Positions 8,850-49,343 of a stretch of DNA of 64,000 nt are shown here, piece by piece. The translations under genes and the position numbers were made by a program. Within the stretch, counting starts at the first letter, position 1. Each line of letters opens with the position of its first letter. The stretch is from Candidatus Aenigmatarchaeota archaeon. Lineage in GTDB: Archaea; Aenigmatarchaeota; Aenigmatarchaeia; CG10238-14; SCSR01. The DNA lies in NCBI GenBank assembly GCA_039000425.1, contig JAWBPV010000004.1, forward strand, positions 9,845-73,844, given 5' to 3'. Under the pieces are notes generated by a model. That model searched no databases. It was given only the letters and a program-made list of their open reading frames with translations, and was not told the origin of the DNA.

Positions 8850-8921
8850 ATATAAAATATTCTATTCAAAAATTTTAAGCTTTTGTTAGCTTCAGGAAAA
8901 TGAGGAAATGTGTAGAGAAAA

Positions 8922-9005: not shown

Positions 9006-9008
9006 ATT

Positions 9009-10414: not shown

Positions 10415-10441
10415 AAATATTTTTCAGAAAATTATTGAATT

Positions 10442-21036: not shown

Positions 21037-21059
21037 GTAATGGAAACAAAATTTAAAAT

Positions 21060-32163: not shown

Positions 32164-32553
32164 ATGGAAGTTGGTAAGATGTTGACTTATCTCATGTTCA
32201 TTTTAATTCCTATAGTAGCTATGCTTGTTTACATTTCAATTTCAAGCAAACTTTTTCCAGAATGTAGGGAAAAAATAACCGGAAGTAAATTTTCAATTCT
32301 AGGTTATTTATCAAAATGTGTTGAATATTGTTGGTCAAAACACGATTTCGGTGGAGATGTTTATTCGGACGATTGTTTTTTGATCGAAGTGAATCCAACA
32401 GATAAAATAGAAAAAAATGAAATTGAGAAATTTTTAGGAAGAAACGTTAAAGTTTATTTCAACACTTTAGAAGCCAATTCAATTCAAAAGCTTAAGATAA
32501 GGTACAATTCAACCGGAAAAGAAATAAGTTTGATTTTAGTAGAAATTCAATAG
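32164..32553 (+). CDS. small N-terminally anchored protein, CW...C[FY] family
   Basis: 129 aa. LTYLMFILIPIVAMLVYISI helix, then CVEYCWSKHDFGGDVYSDDCFLIEV. Confidence 0.55.
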   Translation: MEVGKMLTYLMFILIPIVAMLVYISISSKLFPECREKITGSKFSILGYLSKCVEYCWSKHDFGGDVYSDDCFLIEVNPTDKIEKNEIEKFLGRNVKVYFNTLEANSIQKLKIRYNSTGKEISLILVEIQ

Positions 32554-32584
32554 CTATTTCTTGAAAGAAAGGATAAATAAAATT

Positions 32585-33079
32585 ATGAAAGGAATCGCTA
32601 TTTCCACTATAGCTTTATTTCTGATAGCAATAGCTTCAATAGTCGTTCTCATATCCTTCGTTGGAACAAATCTACCAGCAGCTTTGAAAGAACTCTATTG
32701 CTCCCTATTTCAAGGTATAGCTGGTTTTTTACCTTTACCAGAATATATGAAATCATCCCCACCAAGTTTTTGTAAATCTACACAAATCCAAAAAGTTTTT
32801 TATATAGAAGCTTCAGATCCCGAAAGGATATCTTTTGAGATAGCCAGCCATGTTTTGGCTTGCTGGGAGATCACAGGTAAGATAGGAGTTGATCAGAACA
32901 CGAACTGCTACGAGATTGTTATAAAAAGGATAAACGGTATCGTTGATGAAGATAGCGTTAAATCAAATTTACCAAAAGATTACAAGGGAATAATGAAATG
33001 GGAGGCAGGGGAAATAACAACTCCAAAATCCATAGGTATTTTTTACAATTCAACCAGCAAGTTGATAACGGTGATTTGA
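32585..33079 (+). CDS. pilin-like protein, CW...C[FY] family
   Basis: ATG at 32585 gives MKGIAISTIALFLIAIASIVVLISF. Ectodomain has SHVLACWEITGKIGVDQNTNCYEIVI. Confidence 0.6.
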   Translation: MKGIAISTIALFLIAIASIVVLISFVGTNLPAALKELYCSLFQGIAGFLPLPEYMKSSPPSFCKSTQIQKVFYIEASDPERISFEIASHVLACWEITGKIGVDQNTNCYEIVIKRINGIVDEDSVKSNLPKDYKGIMKWEAGEITTPKSIGIFYNSTSKLITVI

Positions 33080-33080
33080 A

Positions 33081-33482
33081 ATGAAAGGAATGGCTTTGGA
33101 ATATGTGTTTAAAATGTTTTTGTATGTTGTTGTGGTTATCGTTGTGATAAGTTTGATAATACATTTCAGAGAAGAGATATCTTCTTCCTTAAAACTTTGT
33201 GAATATTTGTCGATTGGTTGCGGAGAAGAAAAATGTGAAACGATTCAAGCAAGCGAAGATAGGTTGGAAGAAAAAGTGATAAAGAAATATTGTGATCTAT
33301 GCTGGAGGAAAACTGGAAGTAAAGATTATGGAAAAGATTGTTTTTGTTATATAGTGAGCGGAAGCTTTTTTGTAAACAATTACAACTTACCCGAATACTG
33401 TGAAATGGAGTGTAGAAAAGATGCTACCAGTTTGATCTTTATCTACAACAGCTTAATGAAGAAAGTTTTCGTACAGTGTTGA
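33081..33482 (+). CDS. pilin-like protein, Cys-rich, CW...C[FY] family
   Basis: 133 aa. MKGMALEYVFKMFLYVVVVIVVISLI, then YCDLCWRKTGSKDYGKDCFCYIVSG. Confidence 0.6.
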   Translation: MKGMALEYVFKMFLYVVVVIVVISLIIHFREEISSSLKLCEYLSIGCGEEKCETIQASEDRLEEKVIKKYCDLCWRKTGSKDYGKDCFCYIVSGSFFVNNYNLPEYCEMECRKDATSLIFIYNSLMKKVFVQC

Positions 33483-33483
33483 T

Positions 33484-33930
33484 ATGAAAGGGTTGGCTTT
33501 AGATTATGTTTTTGTGATGATGGTTGGCGTTGTAGTTATTTGCGTGGCCGTAGCTATTATAGCAGGCTTTTTAAAACTTGAATTCATATTTAAACCTAAA
33601 TGGATAACTGAAGTCAAATACGCTTGTTCCAAATACAACAACAGCAAAATAAATCTTGAAAATCTAAAAGTTGTGATCTATGGTTTTTTAACAGGTCAGT
33701 GCAACGATTTTTATTCACAGCTAACCCAAGACATAAAATTCGAAGATGTTAAAAGAATAGTGGGAGAAATTGACGGTAAGGTGAATGTGATTTTGTTGAG
33801 AGAGTGTGAATTCTTAAAAACCAACACACATTCAGTTTACGTTTGTTGTGATAAGTTTGAGTCTGGAGAAAGTATTAATATAAAAAGAAGAGAAATTAAA
33901 AATAGTGATGTCTTGGTTTGTAAGAAGTGA
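33484..33930 (+). CDS. pilin-like protein
   Basis: 148 aa. MKGLALDYVFVMMVGVVVICVAVAII. Starts 1 nt after the upstream stop. Confidence 0.6.
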   Translation: MKGLALDYVFVMMVGVVVICVAVAIIAGFLKLEFIFKPKWITEVKYACSKYNNSKINLENLKVVIYGFLTGQCNDFYSQLTQDIKFEDVKRIVGEIDGKVNVILLRECEFLKTNTHSVYVCCDKFESGESINIKRREIKNSDVLVCKK

Positions 33931-34831
33931 AATCGGTAGGAAAGGTATAAATGCTTTAGAAATAGTTTTCGCCATGTTCATCTTGATAGTTGTAACGCTG
34001 GTCGTGATAAGGCTTTTTACAACGACAGTTACAAGAGAAACTTTACCGAACATAGAAGATTTCAGGAAAACTTACAATTACGATAAAGAAAAAAGTAAAT
34101 GTAACAATTTGTGCTCTTCTTACCAAAGTGAAAATTGTGAGTTGAGTGCAGCAGTTAACTATTGCCAGCAAAAGATATCAATAGACATAGATGGGAATTT
34201 CAGGACAAACGAGAGGAATCATGGCGGCTTGATAGCGGGTGTGCCTTACTGCGAAGATGGCCTTTATTGTTTTCATATAACTTCTTGTGAGTGTGGTTTT
34301 GTACTCGATGCTAAAACATGTTTAGAGATCATGAAAGAGTATTATGTAAACCAATTGGGTTTATCTGAAGATGAAGCGAAACAGATAATAGTCAACAAAA
34401 TAACTCCAGGCACATGCGACCGAAACCCTGCAAGATGGGGTGTTAAATTTTATCAAGGCTATAAGCCGATAAAACCAAGTGATGAAGAATGTAGAAGGTA
34501 TAGATTGGATCCGGGTTGCAATTTGCCGTCTGATTGGTGGTGGTGGAAAGCTGGTTATGGTGATATAGCACAAGAAATTGGAGTCTTGAAAGGTGGGATA
34601 TCCCCATATCCCTTGTTTTACTGTATTAGTGGAGATAGAAAAATTGAATGCAAATGGGTTGGTTGTCCTTTAGGAAAAATTCATATTTTCTTGAGTGATG
34701 GTAGTGTTTATGAAGATGAGGATAAGCCAATTGGTGATGTTATTTTTGGTCCGCTTAACAAAGGAAGTTACTCAGCAGTTCTTGTTTGTGGTGGAAAAAC
34801 GGCAAGTTCCGGATTAATTCTCATTGATTAA
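33908..34831 (+). CDS. pilin-like protein with Cys-rich ectodomain
   Basis: 307 aa from ATG 33908. ...SEIGRKGINALEIVFAMFILIVVTLVVIRLF (RKG + helix), followed by many Cys. Confidence 0.6.
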   Translation: MSWFVRSEIGRKGINALEIVFAMFILIVVTLVVIRLFTTTVTRETLPNIEDFRKTYNYDKEKSKCNNLCSSYQSENCELSAAVNYCQQKISIDIDGNFRTNERNHGGLIAGVPYCEDGLYCFHITSCECGFVLDAKTCLEIMKEYYVNQLGLSEDEAKQIIVNKITPGTCDRNPARWGVKFYQGYKPIKPSDEECRRYRLDPGCNLPSDWWWWKAGYGDIAQEIGVLKGGISPYPLFYCISGDRKIECKWVGCPLGKIHIFLSDGSVYEDEDKPIGDVIFGPLNKGSYSAVLVCGGKTASSGLILID

Positions 34832-34862: not shown

Positions 34863-37800
34863 ATGGATAGTTGGTGTAAATTTTCTATTTTCTCATTGTT
34901 GACAATATTAGTACTTATAACTATTCCAAACACTGGCTTTGGAGACTGTAGACTTTTTTACATATCTAACTCAGATTGTTCTTATTTTTATTATGTACCG
35001 TCTGGACCTGGGTATGCTGCTGCTTTATGTACTATTAATAAAAAACCCGTAGAAAGTTATAGAAATTATCAGTATACTCAGTGTAGTGAAACTTATGCAT
35101 CTGGAAAAGCAAACGCGTGTCCACCTATTTCTCATTCATATTTTAATGGAAAACCATGTTATATACACAAGGATTGTTTTGTAGGTTATTGTACATACAA
35201 AGAATATGAAGGCAGATGGTCTGCAAGCACAAAAGAGTGTGTGAAATGTGAAGGTAGGATGAAGCGATATGTGTATGGAAATGCTGAAAAAATTTGTGTT
35301 GATTGTTCAGGAAATATTCTTTGTTATCATGGAACGTATGTATGTGAATCTGCTTGTGGTGCTCCATCGGAATGTGACGATAAAAAACCTGGTGATCCTA
35401 TTCCAGGTGGTTATTGTGATAGTAATTGCAATCCTGTGTTAACATGTGATAGTTCTAGCTATAATTCTTGTAGTTCTGCTTACAATTTTGGAAGTACCTC
35501 TGGAACAAAAACCGATATGTGTGGGGCAGATCAATATTACAAAGTTTCAACACCACCCGGAAAGAAATGTGATATAAAATGGACTGTAACCCCAGATGGC
35601 AATGCTGATTATGATCTATACGTGAAATGGTCTTCGGTTTGTCCATCAACTTCAAACTACGATTGTATATCTAGAGCCGGAACTGGAAGACAAGATAGCT
35701 GTTCAAAAAACGAACACATAGGGGAAACTTATGCTCTGGTTCATAAATATGGTGGAAGCGGAGCTTATACTGTTTCTGTTTCCATTAGTAATTGTGTTGA
35801 TGTTGTAACTACCACAACTTCTTCAACCACCACCTCAACCACAACAATTCCGGATTGCCGTAAGTGTGAAATTCGAAACTTACAATGTCCGTCTACAGTT
35901 AACCCAGGTGAAGATTTTAACATAAAATTCGAGTTCTACGGTACAGGACCAACATACAAATACGAGCACAGAAGTTTATGGTTAGGTGGAAATAGGATAG
36001 GTTGTCATTATGGTGTGGATCATCCGGATTGTCAATGGCACCTAGATAGCTTCGTAGTGACAGCACCATCAACTCCAGGAACTTACACTTACACTGTAAA
36101 ATGTTACGGATACTCTTCTTCATCAGAAAGTTATTGTAGCCCAACTTACCAAGATGATTACAAATCTTGCACAGTTACTGTGCGAGAAACCACTACAACA
36201 ACCTCCACAACATCCACAACAACCACCATACCAGAAGATGACCCATGTGACAATTCTGGAACATGGAAGAAATATGGAATTTATTGTTGCGAAGGAGGAG
36301 ATTGTTCAAATGATGAATCAAAAGTAAGAGGAGTGTGTATAGATAAAAGTACTTACGAGCAAAACAAAGATAAGTTTGATTTAGTTAGAGCTGGTTCAAA
36401 CGAACATTGTGTTAAATGTAAAAATAGTGATTGTTGCCATGAATTCAGAAGCTTTTGTTTTGATTATTCTTCAAGCTCACCAACTGGTTGTATAGGTCGC
36501 AGAGGAATTGTAACATCAACTTGTGCTGACAAAAATGGAAACACGTGTGATTTATTATCAGCCCTTAAAGGGTGTGATTTAAAAGAAGAAATGTCTAAGC
36601 TTGGTCAATTATATTGCGCTTTTTGTCGAAATCCTCCGACAACCACAACAACCCAACCTACCACATCTACCACAACAACCCAACCTACCACATCTACCAC
36701 AACAACCACCATACCAGAAGATGACCCATGTGACAATTCTGGAACATGGAAGAAAGCTTCAATTTATTGTTATGAAGGTGATGTTAGAGAAGAGAATAAG
36801 AGAGGTTTTTGCTTGGATAAGAGTGTAGCAGAACAGAGGAGTGATTTGGAAATCGTTAGATATGGTGCTCAACAACATTGTGTTAAATGTAAAGCAAATA
36901 GTTGTTGTTTTGATTTAAGAAGTTTTTGTTTCGAATACAACGCAACAGAACCTACAGGCTGTAGTTATCCAGGTAGCGTAACAAGCAGGTGTGGAGATGA
37001 AGGTGGTAATGTTTGTTCACATCCTTCGCAAGTTGGGGAAAATTGTGTGATCAAAGAGAATAAAGATAAACTTGGTTTATGGTATTGCTATGCATGTCCT
37101 TCTGCCAAGAAAATAGAATGTGAAGAATGTTATGCTAGGTCAGAATGTAAATGTGAGTTGAAAACAACTTGCGATAATGGTTTTTGGATTTTACAGAATC
37201 AACAAGGCAAGCCTTTGGATTCTATGGTGAATTCTCCAATTCCACCATACCAAATAGATTTTGAGCCGAATTCAAGTGGAAAAATATTGATAACTGCTAT
37301 CTGCTTCAAAAATACACAACCCCAAACTTTTCAACATATTTTAGAAGTTAAAGAACCTTTCTTGGAATGTGACGAAGATTGTAGAACTAGAGAGCCTTGC
37401 GAATGTAGAGTTAACGGATGTGAAGATGGATGGTTTAGCGCAGTTTTAGGAACAACTTTATTGAAATGGAAGGAAAAAATAAATAAGACAAGATTCAAGA
37501 CGTCCTTCATTTCAGAGAAGCCTGGTGTTGTTGAAGTTACTGTTCAATGTATTAGCCCGCAAACATATGAAGAAAAACAAGTTGTTGTAGGAGGAACGAT
37601 TCCAACGAGAAAATTCCAAGCGTTTAACTTCAGAGCAGAAAAGCAGGATAATACTATTAAAATAAAATTAGATTATTCCAACAATCTTGCTGAAGATGTG
37701 GTAATAGTTTTCACCTTAAGTAAAGAAGGAAAAACTATCAACAAAAAATATACAGCTATGATAGGCGATGGAACAGCGAGCTTATCTTTGGATTGCACCG

Positions 37801-37910
37801 ATATAGGAAGAGGAACTTATTCAGTAACTTGGAAAGCTTTTAAGAGCTCTGATGTTGTGAACCCGATAGCTTGGTCAAAACCTGGAGAAATGGTAAGTGT
37901 GACATGTTGA
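34863..37910 (+). CDS. giant secreted Cys/Thr-rich multidomain surface protein
   Basis: 1015 aa. Sec-type signal (FSIFSLLTILVLITIPNTGFG). PPC-like segment (GNADYDLYVKW...GAYTVSVSI). Thr linkers ending TTTIP. Duplicated Cys-rich domain of about 130 aa. Two C-terminal Cys-framed beta modules. Confidence 0.8.
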   Translation: MDSWCKFSIFSLLTILVLITIPNTGFGDCRLFYISNSDCSYFYYVPSGPGYAAALCTINKKPVESYRNYQYTQCSETYASGKANACPPISHSYFNGKPCYIHKDCFVGYCTYKEYEGRWSASTKECVKCEGRMKRYVYGNAEKICVDCSGNILCYHGTYVCESACGAPSECDDKKPGDPIPGGYCDSNCNPVLTCDSSSYNSCSSAYNFGSTSGTKTDMCGADQYYKVSTPPGKKCDIKWTVTPDGNADYDLYVKWSSVCPSTSNYDCISRAGTGRQDSCSKNEHIGETYALVHKYGGSGAYTVSVSISNCVDVVTTTTSSTTTSTTTIPDCRKCEIRNLQCPSTVNPGEDFNIKFEFYGTGPTYKYEHRSLWLGGNRIGCHYGVDHPDCQWHLDSFVVTAPSTPGTYTYTVKCYGYSSSSESYCSPTYQDDYKSCTVTVRETTTTTSTTSTTTTIPEDDPCDNSGTWKKYGIYCCEGGDCSNDESKVRGVCIDKSTYEQNKDKFDLVRAGSNEHCVKCKNSDCCHEFRSFCFDYSSSSPTGCIGRRGIVTSTCADKNGNTCDLLSALKGCDLKEEMSKLGQLYCAFCRNPPTTTTTQPTTSTTTTQPTTSTTTTTIPEDDPCDNSGTWKKASIYCYEGDVREENKRGFCLDKSVAEQRSDLEIVRYGAQQHCVKCKANSCCFDLRSFCFEYNATEPTGCSYPGSVTSRCGDEGGNVCSHPSQVGENCVIKENKDKLGLWYCYACPSAKKIECEECYARSECKCELKTTCDNGFWILQNQQGKPLDSMVNSPIPPYQIDFEPNSSGKILITAICFKNTQPQTFQHILEVKEPFLECDEDCRTREPCECRVNGCEDGWFSAVLGTTLLKWKEKINKTRFKTSFISEKPGVVEVTVQCISPQTYEEKQVVVGGTIPTRKFQAFNFRAEKQDNTIKIKLDYSNNLAEDVVIVFTLSKEGKTINKKYTAMIGDGTASLSLDCTDIGRGTYSVTWKAFKSSDVVNPIAWSKPGEMVSVTC
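36214..36272 (+). repeat. 59-nt exact repeat, copy 1 (inside the 1015-aa gene)
   Basis: ccacaacaaccaccataccagaagatgacccatgtgacaattctggaacatggaagaaa is identical to 36697-36755. Encodes TTTTIPEDDPCDNSGTWKK. Confidence 0.9.
36645..36707 (+). repeat. 27-nt tandem repeat, about 2.3 copies (TTTQPTTST linker)
   Basis: acaacaacccaacctaccacatctacc at 36645-36671 and 36672-36698, with a partial third copy. Confidence 0.9.
36697..36755 (+). repeat. 59-nt exact repeat, copy 2
   Basis: Identical to 36214-36272. Flanking sequence is diverged, with only short identical patches such as acattgtgttaaatgtaaa. Confidence 0.9.
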
Positions 37911-38512: not shown

Positions 38513-38800
38513 ATGGCAGAAAAAGCAGGAAATCAAGACAACGTGATATTCGTTGGTAAAAAACCTTCTATGGCTTACGTGCTAGGGGTGATAACTCAAT
38601 TCAACTCTGGTAAAAAAGAAGTTCATATAAAAGCTAGGGGGAGAGCTATATCAAGAGCAGTAGACGTTGCACAGATAGTTACCAGGAGGTTCATAACAGA
38701 TGCAAAGATAAAGAACATAGAAATAGGAACAGAAGAAAAAGAGCTTGAAGATAAGAGTAAGATAAACGTTTCCACGATAACCATAACGCTTGAGAGGTGA
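38513..38800 (+). CDS. albA: DNA/RNA-binding protein Alba
   Basis: 95 aa. [51 protein letters not shown] is a typical Alba sequence. Confidence 0.9.
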
Positions 38801-38858: not shown

Positions 38859-39380
38859 ATGCCTGAATTGTGGGTTTACGTTTTTGGAGGTATAGTTATC
38901 GCTATACTTGCCATGTTGGTTGGGTATAACTTACTTTCCAACATGATCAACTATTCTCAAAAGCAAGATGCTCTAGCTCAATTTTCAGACCTCTGCTACA
39001 ACATTAACACGGTTTGCGTTCAAGAGTTGGGAAATTATTTGATAAAGAAATACAGCTTTCCGTCAACGGTGAGGGTAGTTTATGCTACGCAAGATGTTTT
39101 CAACCCATTACCCAAAGTTTTAGATAAAATAAAAAACGGAGAAATTAGTTTTGGAAAAAGCGTTTGCTTACAATTTAAAGATGAAAAATACTTGAGGTGT
39201 TGTCCAGAGCCACCTAAACAATTTCTATGTAGAATTCAAATGCCACACCTAGGAGTTTTACCTGAGCAAGAAGACATTTTCGTCGCAGTGAACAAGATTT
39301 TGGGAAGATCGCCGAGAAGAGATTATGAAATCTTGATAAACAAGACTTCTGGTGATGAAGTTTTAGTTACAACCATTTGA
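38859..39380 (+). CDS. N-terminally anchored Cys-containing protein
   Basis: 173 aa. MPELWVYVFGGIVIAILAMLVGYNLL helix. Ectodomain has 7 Cys by eye. Confidence 0.55.
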   Translation: MPELWVYVFGGIVIAILAMLVGYNLLSNMINYSQKQDALAQFSDLCYNINTVCVQELGNYLIKKYSFPSTVRVVYATQDVFNPLPKVLDKIKNGEISFGKSVCLQFKDEKYLRCCPEPPKQFLCRIQMPHLGVLPEQEDIFVAVNKILGRSPRRDYEILINKTSGDEVLVTTI

Positions 39381-40687
39381 TTTTTTTATCAATTTTTCAA
39401 ATAATATTTGTGAAAGCTATAGCAACAGAAATTATTTTGACTATCGGAGTTTTAATTGCGGTTGGCATCACGGCTTTTCAATTGAGGGGAATTTACATAG
39501 CTCAACAACAGCTTGGAGAAGAAGAAGTTATTTTATCTTTCATCAAAGATTTGGAATCGATAGTTGATAGAGCTATAGGAACAACAGGAGATGCCGCTTT
39601 TATTTATTACCCAATAATTGAGAAATATAGGGTTGAAATTGAGAATAATGTTGTTAAAGCTTTGGATAAAATTTCTGGGAAACAAGCGAGCTTTTCAAAA
39701 TTAGCTCCAGAAATCGTTGAAAATTCTTTTGAAGATTGTGAAAAGATTTTTGTTTTGAAGAAAGGAAGAAAAATAGCTTTGATGTGTAGGTGCTTGGATT
39801 TGGGAGAATATTGTACTGATTCCATACTTTGTTGCTCTGGTTATTGTAATCACACGAGCTTAAAATGTGAAGAAATGCCTATTTGCTCAGAAGATAGGAT
39901 TTGCCCAGGTGCACCGGAGGCAAAAAAAGATTCTTTAGGAAGGGATTGTTGTCCTTCAGAAGCACCGATTTGTACTAATGGACATTGTTGCCCTGTGGAT
40001 AAACCAAAATGGTGTGAAAAACCTAAAGATGGCAGTGCACCGAGATGTATGGATAAAGTGGAATATGATAACAATTGTAAAAGAGGTTTTCCTATAATTT
40101 ATATACCTTTAAATTATAAGGAAGACGAGTTCAATCTTTTCAAATCAGGTGCGGAAAGAAATTTTTTTGATTATGTAACAAAATATGCTCCGAGTAAGGA
40201 ATGTCGTAATCCTTATTCGGTTTTTCAACCCTATTATTTAGATCCAAGTAAATGCACAATAAAATGTTCTAATCCATGTGAAGATTGCCTATCTGTTACT
40301 TTCAATTGTTTTATTAATAATTACCAAGAGGTTATAAACGATGCAAATGATTGGATGGTGATTGGTATATGTAAAGATTTTTCTTGTACTGCTGGAGGTA
40401 AATGGTGTGGTTGCTCAGTACTATTCAGTAGATTCTCAGTTGATAACATTGGTTGTGGAAGTGATTCAGCCGCCCATGAAATGGGCCATTCTGTAGGGTT
40501 CAATCATGTTGATGGTATTTGTGACAACCCCGCAGGCGCTTGTCAAGGGATTAATGCAGGAGATTGTAATGATCCTAAAAAATATGAAGATCTTATGACA
40601 TATTGTCGCACACGTTTTAGATATGGAAACATAGCTTATGAGTATTTAAAAAATACGATATTTAAAGATTATTTAGTTGGTTGTTGA
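39377..40687 (+). CDS. membrane-anchored (pilin-like?) Cys-knot + metzincin-type zinc metalloprotease
   Basis: HEMGHSVGFNH (HExxHxxGxxH) at 40475-40507. Dense Cys region CRCLDLGEYCTDSILCCSGYCNH...CCPSEAPICTNGHCCP. TTG 39377 (TTGA overlap) or in-frame GTG 39410, which gives MKAIATEIILTIGVLIAV. Confidence 0.7.
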   Translation: MIFLSIFQIIFVKAIATEIILTIGVLIAVGITAFQLRGIYIAQQQLGEEEVILSFIKDLESIVDRAIGTTGDAAFIYYPIIEKYRVEIENNVVKALDKISGKQASFSKLAPEIVENSFEDCEKIFVLKKGRKIALMCRCLDLGEYCTDSILCCSGYCNHTSLKCEEMPICSEDRICPGAPEAKKDSLGRDCCPSEAPICTNGHCCPVDKPKWCEKPKDGSAPRCMDKVEYDNNCKRGFPIIYIPLNYKEDEFNLFKSGAERNFFDYVTKYAPSKECRNPYSVFQPYYLDPSKCTIKCSNPCEDCLSVTFNCFINNYQEVINDANDWMVIGICKDFSCTAGGKWCGCSVLFSRFSVDNIGCGSDSAAHEMGHSVGFNHVDGICDNPAGACQGINAGDCNDPKKYEDLMTYCRTRFRYGNIAYEYLKNTIFKDYLVGC

Positions 40688-40688
40688 A

Positions 40689-41336
40689 ATGAAAAAGTTA
40701 TTAATGTTAATAATATTTTTTGCATTTGTTGTACTATTGACGTTAGCTAGTGCACAAACAAATAAAATAATTGTCTTGGAGTTGTTAATATTTCAAAATG
40801 ATACAGTTATTTTAAAAAGTTTTATAATAACTGATGGGGTACCAGATAAATTTTTCCCACAGGAGATAAACCCATCTTACTTACTTAAAATAATTTCTTT
40901 TGACGGACAAGTTGTTTTCCAAGAAAATTTAAGAATAAGTTTTTTAGCTTACCCAACAAGTTTTTCAGAGAACGTCTCAGATACAGTGATAAATTTGGAG
41001 AAAGTAAATTTATATTTAAAGCTCCCATTTTTTGAGACTGCTGAAAAGATTCAAATATATCATGATTCAAAACTGATATTTGATTTTAAAATACCGTGGT
41101 GTAACAATAATGGTTTATGTGAAATTGAAAAAAATGAAAATTATATAAACTGCTTTAATGATTGTCATTGTGGTAACAGTATATGTGACAAATTTGCGGG
41201 AGAAAGTTTTTCGAACTGTCCTCAAGATTGTCCACATGAAGAGATAAAAACACCAATCTACATTTATTTAACTATTATTGGTTTTATTGTCTTAATCGTC
41301 ATTCTTCTCGTTTACAAGATAAGGTTGGTGAGATGA
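40689..41336 (+). CDS. secreted beta-rich protein with Cys-rich stalk and C-terminal TM anchor
   Basis: ATG 40689 gives MKKLLMLIIFFAFVVLLTLASAQ (Sec signal). CNNNGLCE...CFNDCHCGNSICD...CPQDC. C-terminal helix IYIYLTIIGFIVLIVILLVY. Confidence 0.6.
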   Translation: MKKLLMLIIFFAFVVLLTLASAQTNKIIVLELLIFQNDTVILKSFIITDGVPDKFFPQEINPSYLLKIISFDGQVVFQENLRISFLAYPTSFSENVSDTVINLEKVNLYLKLPFFETAEKIQIYHDSKLIFDFKIPWCNNNGLCEIEKNENYINCFNDCHCGNSICDKFAGESFSNCPQDCPHEEIKTPIYIYLTIIGFIVLIVILLVYKIRLVR

Positions 41337-42727
41337 AAGGACAAACAAGTATTTTGATCAAAGGAATTTACCTTATCTTGATCTTAGTAAGTATAGCGAT
41401 CTTCATAAACAGAATTTTTTACTCCAATTTGACTTCAGCTCAACAAGAAAGAAATTTAATGCTCAAGAATAGGGCAAACAGGTTGCTGGATGTTCTTGCA
41501 GGCGACGTAAATTGTTTAGGTTATGAAGAAAAAGGCAGTGTGGAAAAAAAGGTTATAGAATTGAGTTCTCACAGGATCTTGGAAAAGAAAAAACTCGATG
41601 ATTTCTCGAAATTTAACGATATCCAGCCAGATTGTGCTAGAGATTTTGATTTTGGTTATAGGGTTGATGTGGAAACTTTTCCTTTGTACATAAGTTCAGC
41701 AGAAGTTGAAAGAAAGGGAGGGGTTTTTGGTAAGTTGTTGTCTATAATAAATGGAAAAAAAGTTGTTTTTGTTCTAGATGTATCTGGAAGTATGGGGAAT
41801 TATGGGGGTAAATGTGATGTTGATCATGATAGAGACACAAAGATCTGTTGTTTAAAGCTTTTCATGTATGGTTTCATAGAAGGAATGAGTGATGATAGTG
41901 AGATAGCTGTTATACCTTTTGGTGATGAAAGTGGGTGCAATCCGCGATTGTTATTCGATTTCACAAGATTGAATGGTTTTTCTACAAGGGAAGAGTTGAA
42001 AAAAAAGATTTCTTCACTTTCTCCGAAACATGGAACTCCGATGGCAGCAGGTTTAAAGAAGGGGTTTGAATATGCTTTTGCAAATGGTGGTGAAGCTATT
42101 GTACTTTTAACAGATGGTGTAGAAAATGAGTGCATACCACCAAATTCGATTGATGTAGCGAGAAGTTTCAAGTATACAGGAATACCAGTTTACACAGTCG
42201 CTTATGGTTCCGTAGCTGATACAGGAGTACTGCAAGAAATAGCGTCTATAAGCAATGGTCAATTCTTCGATGCTAGGATGTGTGAAGAGTTGGTTTCAAA
42301 ACCGAAAGAAAGTCTTGAAGTGGAAATTCCTCCAATGAAGTGGAGCTTTGGTGATGCAGAATTCTCGAGGAAAGAATCCTTGAGACAAAAAATTTCTGTT
42401 TCAATTCCGATAAATGTTTTAGTGGATGAAAAAACGATAATTCCTGGAAAAATGACGATAACGATTTTCGATGGTGAGTTGGAAGAATTCAGGGGTTTCT
42501 TGGATAAGAGTTGTTTAACTAACACTAACTTCAGAAAAACTTTCACTTTCCATTATCCTTTACATTTTGATTCTTCGAACAAAAAGTTGTGTCTAGAAAT
42601 TGATGGAAAAGAATTTTGTCAAAAAATTAAATGTGAAAAAAACATAAAATTCCCGAAAAAAATTTCGCCAGGAAAATATGATGTGATCATAAGAAATGAA
42701 GGTGATGAGTTAGAGGTGATGATTTGA
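41333..42727 (+). CDS. pilin-signal protein with von Willebrand factor A domain (TadG/PilY1-N-like)
   Basis: 464 aa. MKGQTSILIKGIYLILILVSIAIF. MIDAS DVSGS at 41777-41791 (VVFVLDVSGSMG), GTPMAAGL, IVLLTDGVEN. ATGA overlap upstream. Confidence 0.8.
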   Translation: MKGQTSILIKGIYLILILVSIAIFINRIFYSNLTSAQQERNLMLKNRANRLLDVLAGDVNCLGYEEKGSVEKKVIELSSHRILEKKKLDDFSKFNDIQPDCARDFDFGYRVDVETFPLYISSAEVERKGGVFGKLLSIINGKKVVFVLDVSGSMGNYGGKCDVDHDRDTKICCLKLFMYGFIEGMSDDSEIAVIPFGDESGCNPRLLFDFTRLNGFSTREELKKKISSLSPKHGTPMAAGLKKGFEYAFANGGEAIVLLTDGVENECIPPNSIDVARSFKYTGIPVYTVAYGSVADTGVLQEIASISNGQFFDARMCEELVSKPKESLEVEIPPMKWSFGDAEFSRKESLRQKISVSIPINVLVDEKTIIPGKMTITIFDGELEEFRGFLDKSCLTNTNFRKTFTFHYPLHFDSSNKKLCLEIDGKEFCQKIKCEKNIKFPKKISPGKYDVIIRNEGDELEVMI

Positions 42728-44256
42728 AAGCACAAACCATGGAACTGATGGACTTACTCATTTTGGTAGTTGGTGTATCTATCTTGATCTTAACTTCCTA
42801 TTTTTTGTTTTCTTCTAGAGTTCAGAGATCAGCAGCTATGGTATCAACACAACACAAATATGAAAGAGTGGTTGAAGCTTGTAGGAATTTCCTCTACACT
42901 AAAATTCCTAAATTTGAGAAAACTTATGGTCAATTGCTTGGCGATATGGTTGTTAATGGTGGGGAAGATGTTGTTGATTATGGAGATAAATATGGTGGAA
43001 TAAACGTAACGAAAATAATTTATGATTACTTCGATTCGCATTTTCAAAACAAGTGGAACTTAACGCTTACGGCGAGAACAGAAATTTTTCATGTTTTGTG
43101 GATACCAAATTCTGATCAAGGAAATTCTATCTCAAAAGTTTCTATAATAGATGGGAGAGAACTTGGAAGATATTACGTAGCGCCACCCAAGGTGAATGGA
43201 AATCCGTCAAGAGTTGCTATGGATAAACAAGGAAACGTTTGGGTTGGTAACCGAGGTACTAGGACTTTAGTTAAGATAGGTTTAAAAGAAAATGGTCAAT
43301 GTGTCGATAAAAATGGAGACGGAATAATAAAAACTTCAGAAGATTTGAACGGCAACGGGTTGATAGAAGATACGGAAATATTGCCTTTCGATCAAGATGA
43401 ATGTCTTCTTGCCGAAGTTTTCCTGGGAGGAAATACTCACGGAAGTTTTGGGAAGAAAGGTGTGAGAGCTGTTTGTTTCAGTGAGAAAGAGAATGTGGTT
43501 TATGCAGGGTTGTATGAAGAGAGAAAATTTTTCAAAGTTTCAAACGATGGAATAGTCTTGAAGGAATGGGATTTGGGTGGGCTCGGTGTTAATCCGTATG
43601 GTTGCTTTGTTGATAAGGACGGAATAGTCTGGATTTCAGCAGTTCATCAGAAGAAACTGGTGAAATTCGACCCTTTCAATGAAAATTTTGAAGTTATAGA
43701 TATAGGATATAAAGTTTATGGAATAGCTCCTTGCTATTCAGAAGATTGTTTAGTGATAAATTGCTACGATGATTCTAGATTGATAAAATTCAACACTTCT
43801 AACGATAAAATAATTTTCAACTTAAGGAAGCCCGAATTGGATAAAGGTAGAGGGGTTATAGTTGATGGTGAAGAAAATATATACGCTGTTTCTTCGAAAA
43901 AGAATTTGGTAGTGAAGTATGATAAAGAAGGTAATGAATTGGCGAGGAGCTCGACTTGTAGAGAACCTACAGGAGTTGGTATAGATATACTTGGAAAAAT
44001 TTGGGTTACTTGTTTAGATTCGGAAATTCAAAGGTTTGATGGAAATCTGAATTTTGAAATAGGTAGTAAGTTTGGTTCTGGCCATTACGTCTACAACTTT
44101 TTCACAAGTTACAACACACCACCGATAACTATTGGAAAAAGTTTGAGCTTTGGTTATCCGGAAGAGGTCACCGAAGAAATGACAACATTCTTCGCTCCAG
44201 TCCCGATACCAAGCTGGAGGGGTGAGGTAATCCAGCTTCATTTAAAGGTGTGGTGA
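42724..44256 (+). CDS. pilin-signal protein with six-bladed beta-propeller and tandem EF-hand loops (PilY1-C-like)
   Basis: 510 aa, TTG start in a TTGA overlap. MKAQTMELMDLLILVVGVSILIL. Six repeats of the type GNVWVGN / GIVWISA / KIWVTCL each followed by L(V/I)K(F/Y/I)(D/N). DKNGDGIIKTSEDLNGNGLIEDTE at 43306-43377. Confidence 0.75.
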   Translation: MKAQTMELMDLLILVVGVSILILTSYFLFSSRVQRSAAMVSTQHKYERVVEACRNFLYTKIPKFEKTYGQLLGDMVVNGGEDVVDYGDKYGGINVTKIIYDYFDSHFQNKWNLTLTARTEIFHVLWIPNSDQGNSISKVSIIDGRELGRYYVAPPKVNGNPSRVAMDKQGNVWVGNRGTRTLVKIGLKENGQCVDKNGDGIIKTSEDLNGNGLIEDTEILPFDQDECLLAEVFLGGNTHGSFGKKGVRAVCFSEKENVVYAGLYEERKFFKVSNDGIVLKEWDLGGLGVNPYGCFVDKDGIVWISAVHQKKLVKFDPFNENFEVIDIGYKVYGIAPCYSEDCLVINCYDDSRLIKFNTSNDKIIFNLRKPELDKGRGVIVDGEENIYAVSSKKNLVVKYDKEGNELARSSTCREPTGVGIDILGKIWVTCLDSEIQRFDGNLNFEIGSKFGSGHYVYNFFTSYNTPPITIGKSLSFGYPEEVTEEMTTFFAPVPIPSWRGEVIQLHLKVW

Positions 44257-45497
44257 TGAAATCTCAATCAAGTTTGTTGGTTTTGATTTGTCTTATCGGT
44301 ATTTCTTTAATACTTTGGATCACTTCAGCATTTTTAGCGACAACTTCATCCCAGAGGGTTGTTCAAGAAACTATATTTTCCAAAATTTCAAAATATTTGG
44401 ATTACGTGAAGGGTTTCACGAGGAATGCCCTGATATTTTCTGTTCATGCTGAAAGTAAGCGAATTGCAAGTCAAGGTGGTCAAACCAGTGATGCTGGAAT
44501 TCCAAGGAGTTGGATTTGTAATGCTGAAGTTTCACCTAGTGTTGATGAAGTTAGGTTTTTCCTTTCAGAAGAAACTAAGATGGATTTGAACAAATATTTG
44601 AAAAATTTCAAACTTCAAGACTTGCCTGTAATAAACGTAACCAATTCAACTTGTGTTGATTACGATGTTGATGAAACTTCGGTACTTTCAGGAAAGAATG
44701 ATGAAGAATTCAAAGTTGGTTGTTATGGTAGTAAGATAAACATAAGTCTTGATGAAAATTTGGTGAGTTCATCGAATGAGGTTTACGAAGGAATAGAACA
44801 AAACAGGTTTTGGTACATGTACAGGATATTCAGGGAATGGGCTCCAGTCGCTACGCAAATATTAGTCGGCGGTACGTGTAGTTGTTTATCGAAAATTTGC
44901 TCTTGTGGTAATTCTGATTATTCTGGTGGCTGTATGCCATGTGCTTCTACTTGCCCTGGATTTCAAAACTGTTTGGAAAATGTGGTTGAAAATGCTAGGA
45001 AAGTTCTACAAAATTCTTTTGATGAATATGTTAGATGCAACGCAAGGTTGATAGGTTGTTACCATGAGCTTGAACCTTGCACCGGAGTTTTTGAATGCAT
45101 CGATTGGGAAAACGCACCAGCTTGCAATAATTGCTTAAGAGAAAATGCTGGTGAGCTGTGTTCTAAGCGCATTATCATGGAAAGACCAACTGTACAAGCT
45201 AAGCCCACTTTCTCAACAAGTTTTTCCAAAAACAAGCTAAGCTCAATTTATTTCTCCGATTCATGTTCATCTAAAAAATGTAAACTTTGGTATGAAACTA
45301 AGGGCTCTATGGAAGCTGTATTTTCATGTACGGATGAAAAATACTTACTCTCTGTTTCAGGGGACAGACATTTGATGTTCAGCGTTCATGCAATGGCAAA
45401 ACTGAGGGCGATAAGATGTTATTATGAAAGACCTTGTGTCGAATCTGATGGCGATTGCGTATGTCCTCCTGGTTCTTGGTGTACTGAATGTGAATGA
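44256..45497 (+). CDS. pilin-signal protein with Cys-rich ectodomain
   Basis: ATG 44256 overlaps the upstream stop (TGATG). MKSQSSLLVLICLIGISLILWITSAF. Cys clusters such as CSCLSKICSCGNSDYSGGCMPCASTCPGFQNC. Confidence 0.65.
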   Translation: MKSQSSLLVLICLIGISLILWITSAFLATTSSQRVVQETIFSKISKYLDYVKGFTRNALIFSVHAESKRIASQGGQTSDAGIPRSWICNAEVSPSVDEVRFFLSEETKMDLNKYLKNFKLQDLPVINVTNSTCVDYDVDETSVLSGKNDEEFKVGCYGSKINISLDENLVSSSNEVYEGIEQNRFWYMYRIFREWAPVATQILVGGTCSCLSKICSCGNSDYSGGCMPCASTCPGFQNCLENVVENARKVLQNSFDEYVRCNARLIGCYHELEPCTGVFECIDWENAPACNNCLRENAGELCSKRIIMERPTVQAKPTFSTSFSKNKLSSIYFSDSCSSKKCKLWYETKGSMEAVFSCTDEKYLLSVSGDRHLMFSVHAMAKLRAIRCYYERPCVESDGDCVCPPGSWCTECE

Positions 45498-47039
45498 TCA
45501 TCTTTCTAGTATGAAAGTTTTTTTATGTAAAGGTATTTCTCTTACATGTTGGATGAGCATTTCTCTCTTATCACCAACACCAACAATTCCATCCTCTTCC
45601 AACATCTTCTTAACCCTTTCAAGCTTCCTGGATTTTTCAGCGTAAACTGTTAGCAATTTTTCTCCTTTTAAGACTTTATCGTTAAGTTTTTTGTAAAGTA
45701 TCAAACCAGCTCCTTTATCTTTAGGTGCACCAGCAGCTCTTGCTAATTCATTTATCAAAGCATTGTTCAACCATAAAACAATTCCACTTTTTTCTGAGAT
45801 CAAATCGAACTTATGTGAACCGACTTCTATTTCTTCAGGTCTTACTTTTTCATTTCCGCCTTGGGCAGCTATTATCTCCCTCATCTTCTTCTCAGCTTTG
45901 CCCGATTTCAAGATCTGGACAGCTAAATCGTAGCCATTTTTCTTCCCAACCATTTCAAGAAGAATTCCTGCGATGTGGGCGGCTTTATCTATGAGATCTT
46001 GAACTTTCCTTCCCATCAAAACTTCAAGAGCTTCTTTTGCTTCGAGTGAAGGCCCAACGGCATAACCCAAAGGTTGCTCACCATCTGTTATAGCACACTG
46101 TGTTTTAATACCGAGCCTCTCACCAAGTTCGATGAACTCTTTTGCTAACAAATTCGCATCACCTATAGTTTTAACTTTAGCTCCTCTTCCAGTTGGTATG
46201 TCTACTACCAAGAACTTAGCACCCACAGCTTTTTTCTTGGCCATTATCGAAGGTAAGAGTAAAGGATCTATTGTTAAAGGATATTCAGCTTGGATGAAAA
46301 TATCGTCTGCTGGAGCCAGATGTAAAGCACCACCCCAAGCTATGCATCCATTGGTTTTTTCAACAACTTTTTCCATTTCTTCTGTTGTTAGGCTTACGTT
46401 CATGAGACATTCGGCTCTATCCGCGGTTCCCGCTGCTCCGGTTATCGCTCTAGAAGAAGTTTTTGGTATGGCTAAGCCCGCAGCAGCTACTATCGGCACG
46501 ACTAGAAGAGTTGTTTTATCTCCGGGAATACCTCCGATGCTATGTTTATCAACTATCACCTTCTTTTTCAAATTAAGTTTCTTACCAGTTTCAACCATCG
46601 CTAAAGATAAATACGCAGCCTCATCCAAATCCAAGCCTTTAGTCTCCAGAGCTACTACGAAAGAAGCTATTTCACCTTCGCTTAAATTTCCCTCAACAAC
46701 ATCTTTAACTATTTCAAGAATTTCTTCATAGTTTAATTTTTTGCCTTTTAGCTTGTTCTTTATGTGTTGTAGGGATGAGGGAAACTTTGCGACATCAACT
46801 TCCACTTCAGTTCGTTCTTTCAAACCTAGAATTTTAGCAACGTTTTCCGTTACGCCTATTTCATTTTCTTCCACTATTTCCGTTGTAACGTTTGTTATCG
46901 CAGTTAACTTTTTATCCCCAAATTTAACTACAACCCTCGAAAGCCCTCTTATTCCAAGATCTTCTGCATCTTCCTTGTTGATTATCACTATAGGTTTTCC
47001 ACCAGTCTCCAATTTTAAAAACTTAACTTTCAGTTTCAT
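45498..47039 (-). CDS. deoA: AMP phosphorylase (thymidine phosphorylase family)
   Basis: Start at MKLKVKFLKLETGG. HSIGGIPGDKTTLLVVPIVAAAGLAIPKTSSRAITGAAGTAD, WGGALHLAPADD and IDPLLLPSIMAKK closely match archaeal AMPpase as I recall it from Thermococcus. Confidence 0.85.
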   Translation of the reverse strand: MKLKVKFLKLETGGKPIVIINKEDAEDLGIRGLSRVVVKFGDKKLTAITNVTTEIVEENEIGVTENVAKILGLKERTEVEVDVAKFPSSLQHIKNKLKGKKLNYEEILEIVKDVVEGNLSEGEIASFVVALETKGLDLDEAAYLSLAMVETGKKLNLKKKVIVDKHSIGGIPGDKTTLLVVPIVAAAGLAIPKTSSRAITGAAGTADRAECLMNVSLTTEEMEKVVEKTNGCIAWGGALHLAPADDIFIQAEYPLTIDPLLLPSIMAKKKAVGAKFLVVDIPTGRGAKVKTIGDANLLAKEFIELGERLGIKTQCAITDGEQPLGYAVGPSLEAKEALEVLMGRKVQDLIDKAAHIAGILLEMVGKKNGYDLAVQILKSGKAEKKMREIIAAQGGNEKVRPEEIEVGSHKFDLISEKSGIVLWLNNALINELARAAGAPKDKGAGLILYKKLNDKVLKGEKLLTVYAEKSRKLERVKKMLEEDGIVGVGDKREMLIQHVREIPLHKKTFILER

Positions 47040-47317
47040 TTCATCACACATTTTCCGTTTTCACATACACAATATAAATTTGGTTTCGGAGATGGAATTT
47101 TTGGACATATCACATGTTTAGGACATTCTTGCTCGACGAAAACTTTCTTATTCACACATTCCCATTTCGCCCCAGCTTCTTCTGTACAGCAATTAGTTAT
47201 CTTCCATTCACACTCATTATCTAAAATACAAAAGTTCTTAGTCAATTTACTGAAAAATATGATTAAGAAAGCTGCTCCAAAAAATAGGATTAAAGTTAAA
47301 ATTTGTCTCATTTCCAT
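47036..47317 (-). CDS. small secreted Cys-rich protein embedded in the AMP-salvage operon
   Basis: 93 aa. Signal/anchor ILTLILFFGAAFLIIFF, then 10 Cys (CILDNECEWKITNCCTEE...CVCENGKC). ATGA overlap with deoA and a 10-nt overlap with the rbcL stop. Confidence 0.55.
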   Translation of the reverse strand: MEMRQILTLILFFGAAFLIIFFSKLTKNFCILDNECEWKITNCCTEEAGAKWECVNKKVFVEQECPKHVICPKIPSPKPNLYCVCENGKCVMK

Positions 47318-48528
47318 TCCTCCAAAGCAATCTTCAGTTCTTCATGAGTTTTGGCATACTCTTCCAAACTAACTCCATCGACCACAGCTTCAACAGCTTG
47401 TCTCATCGCTATAGCCCCACTCCTCGTACCGAGTCTATGCCCGTGGATTCCACCACCAGCTTGTATCACAACATCTTTTCCAAAAATTTCGAATATCTTT
47501 GGGATATCAACAGGAGAAATACCACCGGATGCAACTGGCATCACGACTTTAAATTTCCACATCTTCTCTTTCAAAACTTTACAATTTTCCACAACTTCTT
47601 CCTTTCCTTCGAACATTTTACCGAAAGCTGCACCTACATGAAACTGATCTATGCCAATCATCCTAACAAGTTTTGCCAAAACTTTCATGGAAATTCCGTG
47701 TTTTGGATTTTTCGTTATCGCAGCATGACCAGCCCTGTGTCCATGTATAACCAAATCGTAATCTTTATTCCTCAAAGTTTGTAAAGCAGACCATCCAACC
47801 ATGATAACATCAACCATAATATATTCATTTCCCATTTCTTCAACAAGTTTTGATCTTTTCACCATTTCTTCTGTTTCTGCGGTGACGTTTATCATATAAA
47901 CTTTCTTTTCTCCTGTTTCTCTTTCAGCCTTCTCTTTCATCTTTAAAGTTTTTTCCAATCTATTTTCAAATTTATTGAATTTTTGTCCACTCAAGTTTTC
48001 ATCATCTTTAACTATATCACAACCACCGACCCAAGCTTCGTAAGCAACTTTTGCATGTTCTTCAGTTTTAAGACCAATTTTAGGCTTGATGATAGTGCCT
48101 ATCAACGGCCTATCTTTCACTTTAAATATTTTCCTTATCCCATCGATTCCATACTTAGGGCCTTTAAAACTTCTCAGAATTTTCTCAGGGAAATTCACGT
48201 CCAAAAGCCTCAAATTTTTCAAATGTTTCATACCGAAAATATTTCCGGCTATACTGCTCAAGATGTTCGGCAAATTGCCGGGCTCGAAAAGTTCAACAGG
48301 ATAAGCAACTTTCACGAAATTTCCATTGATTTGAAAAACTTTGGCTGAAAGTTTTTTGATGTGAGGTTCTGTCGCGATTTCAGTCCAAGTTCCAGTACTA
48401 CTCTCAGCAGCCAGAGCACCAGCAGCTTTTTTCAACTTTACTCCTCTAACCGCCTCAACCCAGAATTCACATACCAAATCATCTTTATCCGGCAAATATT
48501 CCAAATCAAGATAGTCTTCGTATCTCAT
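47308..48528 (-). CDS. rbcL: ribulose-1,5-bisphosphate carboxylase, form III (archaeal type)
   Basis: 406 aa. ESSTGTWTE, IIKPKIGL, GGCDIVKDDENL (carbamylated-Lys motif), HGHRAGHAA, GGGIHGH. Confidence 0.85.
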   Translation of the reverse strand: MRYEDYLDLEYLPDKDDLVCEFWVEAVRGVKLKKAAGALAAESSTGTWTEIATEPHIKKLSAKVFQINGNFVKVAYPVELFEPGNLPNILSSIAGNIFGMKHLKNLRLLDVNFPEKILRSFKGPKYGIDGIRKIFKVKDRPLIGTIIKPKIGLKTEEHAKVAYEAWVGGCDIVKDDENLSGQKFNKFENRLEKTLKMKEKAERETGEKKVYMINVTAETEEMVKRSKLVEEMGNEYIMVDVIMVGWSALQTLRNKDYDLVIHGHRAGHAAITKNPKHGISMKVLAKLVRMIGIDQFHVGAAFGKMFEGKEEVVENCKVLKEKMWKFKVVMPVASGGISPVDIPKIFEIFGKDVVIQAGGGIHGHRLGTRSGAIAMRQAVEAVVDGVSLEEYAKTHEELKIALEEWK

Positions 48529-49343
48529 CTTATCATCTTAATTATTTTTTCTGGTTTGAAAATTCCTATATCTGTTATAACAGCCGTTACGCAATCCCAG
48601 GGAACTAGATCGAAAGCAGGGTTCCTAACTTTAACCCCCTTTATCTTCTTAGGTAGAACTTCATCAGCCGGTCTTTCTTCAAGTACGAATTTTTTCCTAG
48701 AATCGAACTTGAAATGGCTACCTACAACGTAAAAAGGCTTACCATGTCTCTTAGCTTCTTCAGCTATCAACCAACTCCCAACTTTATTCACAAAACCTTC
48801 TTTTCTTATAGCATCACTCCCAACTATAACCAAATCAGCATGATTAATCAAATGACCAACTGCTATGTCTTCTGCGATTGTAACAGGAATTTTCATCTTA
48901 GCCAACTCTCTAGCCGTTTTTATACCTTGCTTTAAAGGTCTCGTTATAGTGGCTAAGACAGAAATTTTCTTACCGCGCTTGAAAGCTTCTTTTATGACCG
49001 CTAAAGCTTCACCGGAATGGCAATGGGTTAATATTTTTTGCCCATCTTCTACGACTTTTTGACCTATTTCAGCTATCTTTTGAGTAGCTTCTTGCAATTC
49101 CTTTATCAATCTATCTATAGTTTGTATCTTCTTCTCTTTTTTCACGATTTCCAAACAATTGTGAAGTACTACAGCAGTTGGCCTCGCTCTTTCTAGTATC
49201 ATCGCCGCGACTTCGAACTTTAAGCCAAAACCATACTTTTTACAAAATCTTCTCAAGTAGTTCAAAGAATAAATAGCTATTTCTTTTGCACCCTGAACTT
49301 TAACGGACTTTATCCTTTCAGCAACCAAAGCAGGACTTTCCAT
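48525..49343 (-). CDS. ribose-1,5-bisphosphate isomerase (eIF-2B alpha/beta/delta-like, e2b2 family)
   Basis: 272 aa. ILTHCHSGEA, TRPLKQG, VIVGSDAIRKEGFVNKVGSWLIA, KPFYVVGSHFKFD. The specific function is inferred from the operon with rbcL and deoA. Confidence 0.7.
   Translation of the reverse strand: MESPALVAERIKSVKVQGAKEIAIYSLNYLRRFCKKYGFGLKFEVAAMILERARPTAVVLHNCLEIVKKEKKIQTIDRLIKELQEATQKIAEIGQKVVEDGQKILTHCHSGEALAVIKEAFKRGKKISVLATITRPLKQGIKTARELAKMKIPVTIAEDIAVGHLINHADLVIVGSDAIRKEGFVNKVGSWLIAEEAKRHGKPFYVVGSHFKFDSRKKFVLEERPADEVLPKKIKGVKVRNPAFDLVPWDCVTAVITDIGIFKPEKIIKMIR

Follow-up and report, generated by a model that had tools for sequence, protein, structure and literature searches.

Type IV pilins carrying a large binding module on a pilin-type N-terminus have been described in bacteria. 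In Streptococcus sanguinis, PilB carries a von Willebrand factor A (vWA) module and PilC a ConA-like lectin module (Raynaud et al. 2021, PMC8179133; PMC9934059); the 2021 survey of such modular pilins used a bacterial InterPro signature, covered bacteria only, and never mentions archaea (PMC8179133). Here, we report two overlapping genes, called A and B, on contig JAWBPV010000004.1 of a Candidatus Aenigmatarchaeota archaeon (assembly GCA_039000425.1; the stretch analyzed, positions 9,845 to 73,844 of the forward strand, 64,000 nucleotides, is hereafter the window). A encodes a pilin-like core interrupted by a vWA domain and B another pilin-like core interrupted by a beta-propeller. We consider it probable that the two proteins are archaeal counterparts of the bacterial modular pilins, serving on a type IV filament or next to it as exchangeable adhesins. 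They are read as an exchangeable adhesin kit rather than as the pilus-tip adhesin PilY1 split over two genes, as the original prediction had it, because relatives carry other inserts, or none, at the same spots.

The likeness to S. sanguinis PilB and PilC lies in a predicted pilin-type N-terminus joined to a bulky module foreign to pilus biogenesis, encoded beside filament machinery. As in PilB, the vWA domain of A has a metal ion-dependent adhesion site (MIDAS) of the functional type, and the A-family profile matches PilB (1.1e-9) and the pilus adhesins Mfa5 and SpaC in the PDB. A lectin module, as in PilC, also occurs in the A-core family (protein P0164). In contrast to PilB and PilC, A and B are archaeal, their modules are inserted inside the core and not appended at its end, their cores show no recognizable kinship in sequence with bacterial pilins, modules are present on several adjacent cores, and their processing and polymerization are predicted. 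Insertion has a precedent in GspK of type II secretion pseudopili, a minor (tip) pseudopilin with an extra domain placed within its pilin-fold beta-sheet (PMC8179133). GspK shares with A and B a domain inserted in a pilin-type core; the inserts here differ in being recognizable binding domains that vary between orthologues.

PilY1 of Pseudomonas aeruginosa and PilC of Neisseria have in common with A and B a vWA domain, a seven-bladed propeller, an EF-hand-like Ca site, a pilus context, and a presumed adhesive role. However, PilY1 is a single non-pilin polypeptide with a propeller of another family than that of B, whereas here two pilin-like proteins carry domains that are not co-inherited. TadG, a vWA component of Tad/Flp pili (Makarova 2016), likewise has a pilin-like N-terminus followed by vWA and occurs with a TadA-like ATPase and a TadC-like platform, but no TadE/TadG N-terminal family was detected in A by Pfam or NCBIfam, and its vWA domain splits a conserved archaeal core into two halves.

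Among archaeal systems, the Epd pili of Methanococcus maripaludis have an ATPase, two membrane components, and class III signal peptides that end in Gly and are followed by Gln at +1 (PMC3875500). The same layout of one ATPase, two platform proteins, and many diverse pilins defines the archaeal type IV filament "system 1" in methanogens and DPANN archaea (preprint 10.64898/2026.04.22.720090). The window resembles both, with a single ATPase, a pair of platform proteins, and numerous pilin-like proteins that have Gln at the predicted +1 position, and it differs in that no vWA- or propeller-bearing pilins are described there and that the acidic residue of B is at +4, not +5. In archaeal type IV pilus loci, DUF2341 proteins were predicted to be PilY-like adhesins, and vWA proteins were listed only as cytoplasmic regulators (Makarova et al. 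2016); DPANN loci were noted for "dark-matter" pilins, given without domain detail (Makarova et al. 2019). The searchable literature contained no description of a vWA- or propeller-bearing archaeal pilin and no relevant combination of Aenigmarchaeota with von Willebrand or of DPANN with pilin and vWA.

Both open reading frames (ORFs) lie exactly where the original prediction had placed them (Table 1), and its claim of a complete vWA MIDAS in A is borne out. Pfam VWA (PF00092) matches A residues 144-315 (E = 4.3e-15; 56.8 bits; family cutoff, 23.8). The MIDAS comprises DVSGS at 149-153, T235, and D261 within LLTDG; columns D149, S153, T235, and D261 are invariant in 28 members of the A family (45 proteins, nearly all from Ca. 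Aenigmatarchaeota), and column 151 is S or T. A model predicted with AlphaFold2 from the family alignment (mean predicted local distance difference test [pLDDT], 88) has an N-terminal helix (residues 2-57) and a small beta-sheet reaching residue 121, and this part of the core is collinear with the vWA-less orthologues P0028, P0029, and P0035. Foldseek matched the vWA domain with probability 1.0 to many vWA structures; together with the PDB profile search, it placed the domain with BatB, PTMP1, ITIH, and CMG2, and it ranked the minor pilin PilB of S. sanguinis 41st.

Genes A and B share a 4-nucleotide overlap, TTGA: the last codons of A read ...ATT TGA, up to 42727, and the TTG start codon of B is at 42724. 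This predicted coupling is real and is retained in relatives (in locus L001, A lies at 10001-11398 and B starts at 11395); B orthologues in the family alignment begin with MK[GA]Q at the same place. The named homologues of A and B come nearly all from metagenome-assembled genomes of Ca. Aenigmatarchaeota (DPANN).

The proposed propeller fold of B stands, with probably seven blades in place of the six originally counted. The sequence shows no more than about six clear repeats; seven is preferred because the AlphaFold2 model (from the family alignment; pLDDT, 83; N-terminal helix, residues 2-60) has 28 propeller strands in residues 111-449, besides three C-terminal strands, and superposes best on seven-bladed propeller designs (7bid; TM-score, 0.84; root-mean-square deviation, 3.0). 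The B-family profile matched Pizza/PknD/NHL propellers in the PDB (E = 1.8e-21 for Pizza6 and 1.2e-12 for PknD), and the top Foldseek matches were the YVTN propeller from an S-layer protein of Methanosarcina (1l0q), NHL domains, and Vgb lyase. Pfam returned weak SGL, NHL, and Reg_prop matches. The closest relatives of the propeller are archaeal surface proteins (PKD, PEF-CTERM, and S-layer YVTN).

Part of this evidence could be taken to mean that B is a secreted or anchored enzyme, resembling a lactonase or streptogramin lyase, and not a binding module: the SGL match reaches 29.8 bits (cutoff, 26.3), Vgb_lyase matches weakly, JGI applies the names "streptogramin lyase" and "sugar lactone lactonase YvrE" to homologues, and the Foldseek TM-score to Vgb lyase is 0.75. 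We find this very improbable. The SGL match spans one blade only (residues 289-332), Vgb_lyase reaches 17 bits against a cutoff of 50, and identity to Vgb is 13-14%. The invariant columns of B are structural NHL-repeat positions and Cys pairs with no conserved His/Glu cluster; the sole invariant His (H454) lies outside the blades, and the closest relatives are, as stated, surface proteins.

The EF-hand loops claimed for B hold up as loops but not as EF-hand domains. The two adjacent segments, DKNGDGIIKTSE and DLNGNGLIEDTE, lie within an insertion of propeller blade 2 bracketed by Cys193 and Cys227; the pattern D.[DN].[DN]G.[ILV]...[DE] fits them and nothing else in the window (ORF segments of at least 80 amino acids; 29,120 residues). 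Loop columns D195, G200, I202, S205, D207, and E218 are invariant in the B family, and homologue P0071 gives weak EF-hand_1 and EF-hand_5 matches on the same loop. By DSSP, no flanking helices of an EF-hand helix-loop-helix surround them (only H189-192), and they are therefore described as EF-hand-like DxDxDG loops. Just past the last blade, the motif FG-x-x-HYVYNFFT (44089-44106; B residues 451-461) is invariant in all 25 of 25 B-family members; it is swapped for HY(T/G)YSDFTG when the propeller sits in A-type cores, and it may be a module-core junction or an interaction surface.

To place these proteins among their relatives, window proteins were split into parts and compared by tblastn with about 40 related loci drawn from genome and metagenome contigs. 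Seventy of the 80 loci of one genome-contig scan were generic vWA proteins, mostly bacterial, and were discarded, as were Micrarchaeota loci L018 and L020, whose vWA proteins have ordinary Sec signals and lack a pilus context. Gene order is conserved: FlaJ2 comes first, then five small pilin-like genes and a large protein that varies, followed by p173, p436, p219, A, B, and C. The architecture is one of modules on cores, with conserved cores of about 270 (A) and 155 (B) amino acids each holding one module in a loop. Short B orthologues (125-157 amino acids; L004, L005, L008, and L010) align to B residues 1-122 and 475-510; since they miss the propeller as a single block, the propeller is one clean insertion. 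The same holds for vWA, because A orthologues of 266-272 amino acids span the whole of an artificial vWA-deleted A (100% coverage, 55-56% identity). A search with this artificial query added one further protein, and the natural 266-272-amino-acid forms were collinear with it.

The two modules vary independently, and all four combinations of presence and absence occur across the related loci. Both are present in the window, L001, L007, L009, L090-L093, L097-L099, and L101; vWA without propeller is found in L004, L008, L010, L013, and L015; propeller without vWA in L086-L089, L094, L102, and L125; and neither in L005. Moreover, L003 and metagenomic loci L105-L113 and L146 carry a propeller inside an A-type core, at the vWA site, that is 40% identical to the propeller of B (E = 1e-66). 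The cores are thus conserved and the modules are not; the latter are lineage specific, exchangeable, and mutually independent. Locus L095 (Ga0315289_10000299; 5186-12048) holds two tandem A-B-C cassettes in differing module states, the first without vWA and with a propeller, the second with vWA and a short B. In L003, from a distant Aenigmatarchaeote, RNA_pol_N and Rpb6 genes (11434-11873) separate a vWA-bearing from a propeller-bearing A paralogue.

A profile of the A core only, searched against 1.84 billion cluster representatives, recovered only 153 proteins, of which about 60 are short forms (<320 amino acids; no insert or fragmentary). The commonest insert is vWA; others are the propeller, a Cys-rich module of about 110 amino acids, several unknown inserts of 450-640 amino acids, and, in P0164, two Laminin_G_3/ConA-like lectin domains at the same site. 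Neighboring cores carry enzyme modules. In the window, a metzincin motif (HEMGHSVGFNH, 40475-40507) occurs in p436, whose L005 orthologue (7438-9057) has a papain-like domain (Peptidase_C1). In L087 (1332-2546, 2981-4264, and 6633-9617), a p173 core carries Peptidase_M15_4 and a C core a GDSL-lipase-like extension, and an Amidase_2+M23 protein occupies the p219 position. The hydrolase modules may be cell-envelope-attacking enzymes displayed alongside adhesins. For A and B themselves, the most reasonable function, judged from sequence, would be adhesion; it is favored over catalysis because the recognizable A-core inserts are all of binding type and the propeller's relatives are archaeal PKD/PEF-CTERM surface proteins.

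This distribution bears directly on the original prediction of a split PilY1/TadG-like tip adhesin, here taken as an obligate pilus-tip complex of the vWA and propeller proteins that would be equivalent to PilY1. The domain logic is indeed that of PilY1 (a MIDAS-bearing vWA domain alongside a propeller that has a Ca-type site), A and B are translationally coupled, and the vWA and propeller genes adjoin in every related locus listed above with both modules. Yet adjacency is a property of the cores and not of the modules: the survey of such pairs linked the A-B-C cores to the FlaJ operon in many loci, but the vWA-propeller pairing itself is not conserved, the modules occur in four combinations, and other genomes place the same propeller in an A-type core at the vWA site. 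The propeller belongs to the NHL/YVTN type. Neither A nor B matched the PilY1/PilC or TadE/TadG families in Pfam or NCBIfam (for TadE/TadG, at E ≤ 0.1-1), nor did the PDB profile search or Foldseek give a specific match to PilY1 or TadG; PilY1 chains were missing from the PDB profile matches at E ≤ 10 and from the first 50 Foldseek matches. The modules also sit in different cores. By hhalign, A and B align over no more than the initial ~52-57 residues of each protein (signal peptide plus N-terminal helix; probability, 40%), so the cores are treated as unrelated apart from that helix and were rejected as paralogues. A split tip adhesin is accordingly quite improbable; homology to PilY1 or TadG was rejected as membership, on the Pfam, NCBIfam, PDB profile, and Foldseek results, and is kept as an analogy only.

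The surroundings are those of an archaeal type IV filament locus, as originally proposed, with an ATPase, two divergent FlaJ/TadC-like platform genes, and more than 12 pilin-like ORFs that start with MK[GA] followed by a hydrophobic helix. FlaJ2 orthologues, 33-78% identical, lie upstream of the cassette in L001, L004, L005, L008, L011, L012, and L014. The N-termini of A (MKG/QTSILIKG/IYLILILVSIAIFI) and B (MKA/QTMELMDLLILVVGVSILIL) are prepilin-like, as had been claimed: they fit archaeal class III signals ([KR][GA], then Q, then a hydrophobic helix), and the models place the long helices there. A strict class-III-like scan flagged 9 of 107 ORFs (at least 80 amino acids), all nine on the + strand and within three pilin gene clusters. 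In essentially every related locus, gene C comes after B; its probable start is ATG at 44256 (MKSQSS), which makes a TGATG junction with B. The best explanation is that A and B are members of a conserved pilin-like cassette (p173, p436, [p219], A, B, and C) of an Aenigmatarchaeota type IV filament system.

Several observations weigh against a pilin assignment. The cores and small ORFs gave no meaningful match to pilin models (Pfam at E ≤ 10, NCBIfam), and neither Pfam on multi-transmembrane ORFs nor a GxGD/multi-transmembrane scan revealed a prepilin peptidase gene in the window. The predicted leaders are just three residues long (MKG and MKA), unless A is cut at the alternative site K10-G11. 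The A model has a predicted template modeling score of 0.52, which leaves the domain arrangement uncertain. No FlaJ gene neighbors the A-B-C triad of L088 or that of L089. Finally, metagenomic proteins P0023, P0071, P0080, P0160, and P0161 are in-frame fusions of a p219-like protein, which brings a Sec signal, an ectodomain, and a transmembrane segment of its own, with the A core behind it; in them, the K-G-Q site is internal, on a cytoplasmic loop between two transmembrane helices. Such fusions would be compatible with cleavage at the cytoplasmic face, yet would fit a plain membrane anchor equally well; they have either a giant cleavable leader or an A core acting as a plain anchor, and they could be assembly or frameshift artifacts of ATGA-overlapped genes.

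A serious rival therefore follows from the missing pilin hidden Markov model match, the very short leaders, the fusions, and the FlaJ-distant triads: the N-terminal helix would merely be a membrane or pseudopilus anchor, and A, B, C, and their enzyme-bearing neighbors would decorate the cell as bindosome-like or plain membrane-anchored surface proteins with no extended pilus. Sulfolobus sugar-binding proteins have class III signals and yet are not known to form long pili. The hydrolase modules described above for neighboring cores of the window, L005, and L087 and the lack of a peptidase gene in the window also speak for it. We nonetheless hold it to be unlikely, given the tight and repeated linkage of these genes to the ATPase/platform operon, the conservation of K[GAS]Q in A, B, C, and at least 12 small pilin-like ORFs, and N-terminal helices of 55-60 residues, which are typical of pilins.

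With A and B taken as modular pilins, a class III prepilin peptidase would cut their leaders, and the cores, as low-abundance subunits, would be built by way of their N-terminal helices into a filament or a short pseudopilus. The inserted modules would be shown outside the cell. There, vWA would grip protein ligands through the MIDAS metal, and the propeller, stabilized by Ca, would hold a second ligand; for a DPANN archaeon, the likely target would be a host's or partner cell's surface. A more far-reaching proposal, tentative and on balance doubtful, is that the conserved minor-pilin cassette offers loop "sockets" in which binding modules (vWA, NHL propeller, ConA-like lectin, and Cys-rich knots) and, on neighboring cores, lytic enzymes (metzincin, papain-like, M15, M23/amidase, and lipase-like) are swapped between lineages. 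The filament-displayed toolkit would then decide the choice of host or partner cell and the way it is breached, and module shuffling would be the means by which host range changes.

Table 1. Genes A and B, their parts, and filament-related genes, in coordinates of the window
Feature	Position	Strand	Basis or remark
Type IV filament ATPase, TadA/FlaI-like	13479-15713	+	NCBIfam TadA-family 4.2e-36, FlaI 1.7e-35; Pfam T2SSE 4.6e-15
First FlaJ/TadC-like platform gene	15710-17644	+	Paralogous to FlaJ2 by tblastn
Pilin-like ORF cluster 1	17957-21374	+	MKG/MKA N-termini
Second FlaJ/TadC-like platform gene (FlaJ2)	30029-32155	+	Head of conserved pilin-like operon; weak T2SSF match
Pilin-like ORF cluster 2 (p129, p172, p133, p148, p308)	32164-34831	+	Downstream of FlaJ2, conserved
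p173, upstream cassette gene	38859-39380	+	Order p173-p436-p219-A-B-C conserved
p436, upstream cassette gene	39377-40687	+	Class III-like start VKA/IATE
p219, upstream cassette gene	40677-41336	+	Sec signal and C-terminal transmembrane helix
Gene A, 464 amino acids	41333-42727	+	Pilin-like core with inserted vWA domain
A-core N-terminal part, residues 1-122	41333-41698	+	K-G-Q class III-like leader, helix 2-57, small beta-sheet; DSSP on model
vWA module, about residues 131-321	41723-42295	+	Pfam VWA, Foldseek, PDB profile
MIDAS of A: D149/S151/S153; T235; D261	41777-41791; 42035-42037; 42113-42115		
A-core C-terminal beta-sandwich, residues 324-464	42302-42724	+	Strands 329-463 in model; kept in vWA-less forms
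Gene B, 510 amino acids	42724-44256	+	Pilin-like core with inserted beta-propeller; TTG start
B-core N-terminal part, residues 1-122	42724-43089	+	K-A-Q leader, helix 2-60, alpha/beta element
NHL/YVTN-type beta-propeller module, about residues 123-474	43090-44145	+	Probably seven blades
Two adjacent EF-hand-type loops, DKNGDGIIKTSE (195-206) and DLNGNGLIEDTE (207-218)	43306-43377	+	Predicted Ca-binding
B-core C-terminal strands, residues 475-510	44146-44253	+	Align with C-termini of short orthologues
Gene C (p415)	44256-45497	+	Cys-rich, pilin-like; third of conserved A-B-C triad

The window has a G+C content of about 35% and carries an archaeal marker, the Alba gene, at 38513-38800. In relatives, Alba lies 3' of gene C (L001, 14249-14530; L004, L005, L007, and L009); in the window, it stands between a 185-amino-acid ORF and p173, with AMP phosphorylase after C instead, a local rearrangement within the cassette region. 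In L086, a LAGLIDADG homing-endonuclease-like ORF (7672-8502) separates gene C from Alba. The variable slot between the small pilin genes and p173 is filled in the window by a secreted Cys-rich protein of 1015 amino acids (34863-37910) that contains poly-Thr linkers and is internally duplicated in part (IPEDDPCDNSGTWKK... is present twice); only its C-terminal quarter is kept in L001, where it has Flg_new_2 and NPCBM_assoc matches. Downstream of C, on the - strand, a complete AMP-salvage trio (45498-49343), likewise an archaeal marker, encodes AMP phosphorylase, type III RuBisCO, and ribose-1,5-bisphosphate isomerase; a small Cys-rich ORF of 93 amino acids (47036-47317) lies between the first two, and L001 keeps a 92-amino-acid version. 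A 366-amino-acid ORF at 58988-60088, distant from the main clusters, has a class III-like start (MKSQIDEFALVLLAGLILVGILVVV).

The modular-pilin principle, formulated for bacteria in 2021, would with A and B extend to Archaea, its new aspect being insertion in a fixed loop and exchange between orthologues. Host recognition and attachment by DPANN archaea are, to our knowledge, largely unexplained, and we know of no adhesin pinned down for Aenigmatarchaeota. The locus offers testable adhesin candidates, a MIDAS-bearing vWA domain and a Ca-loop propeller, each on a pilin-like core, and related genomes supply natural "deletion" and "swap" forms of them as ready-made controls. The finding would carry greater weight if it is true that module swapping sets the host specificity of DPANN archaea.

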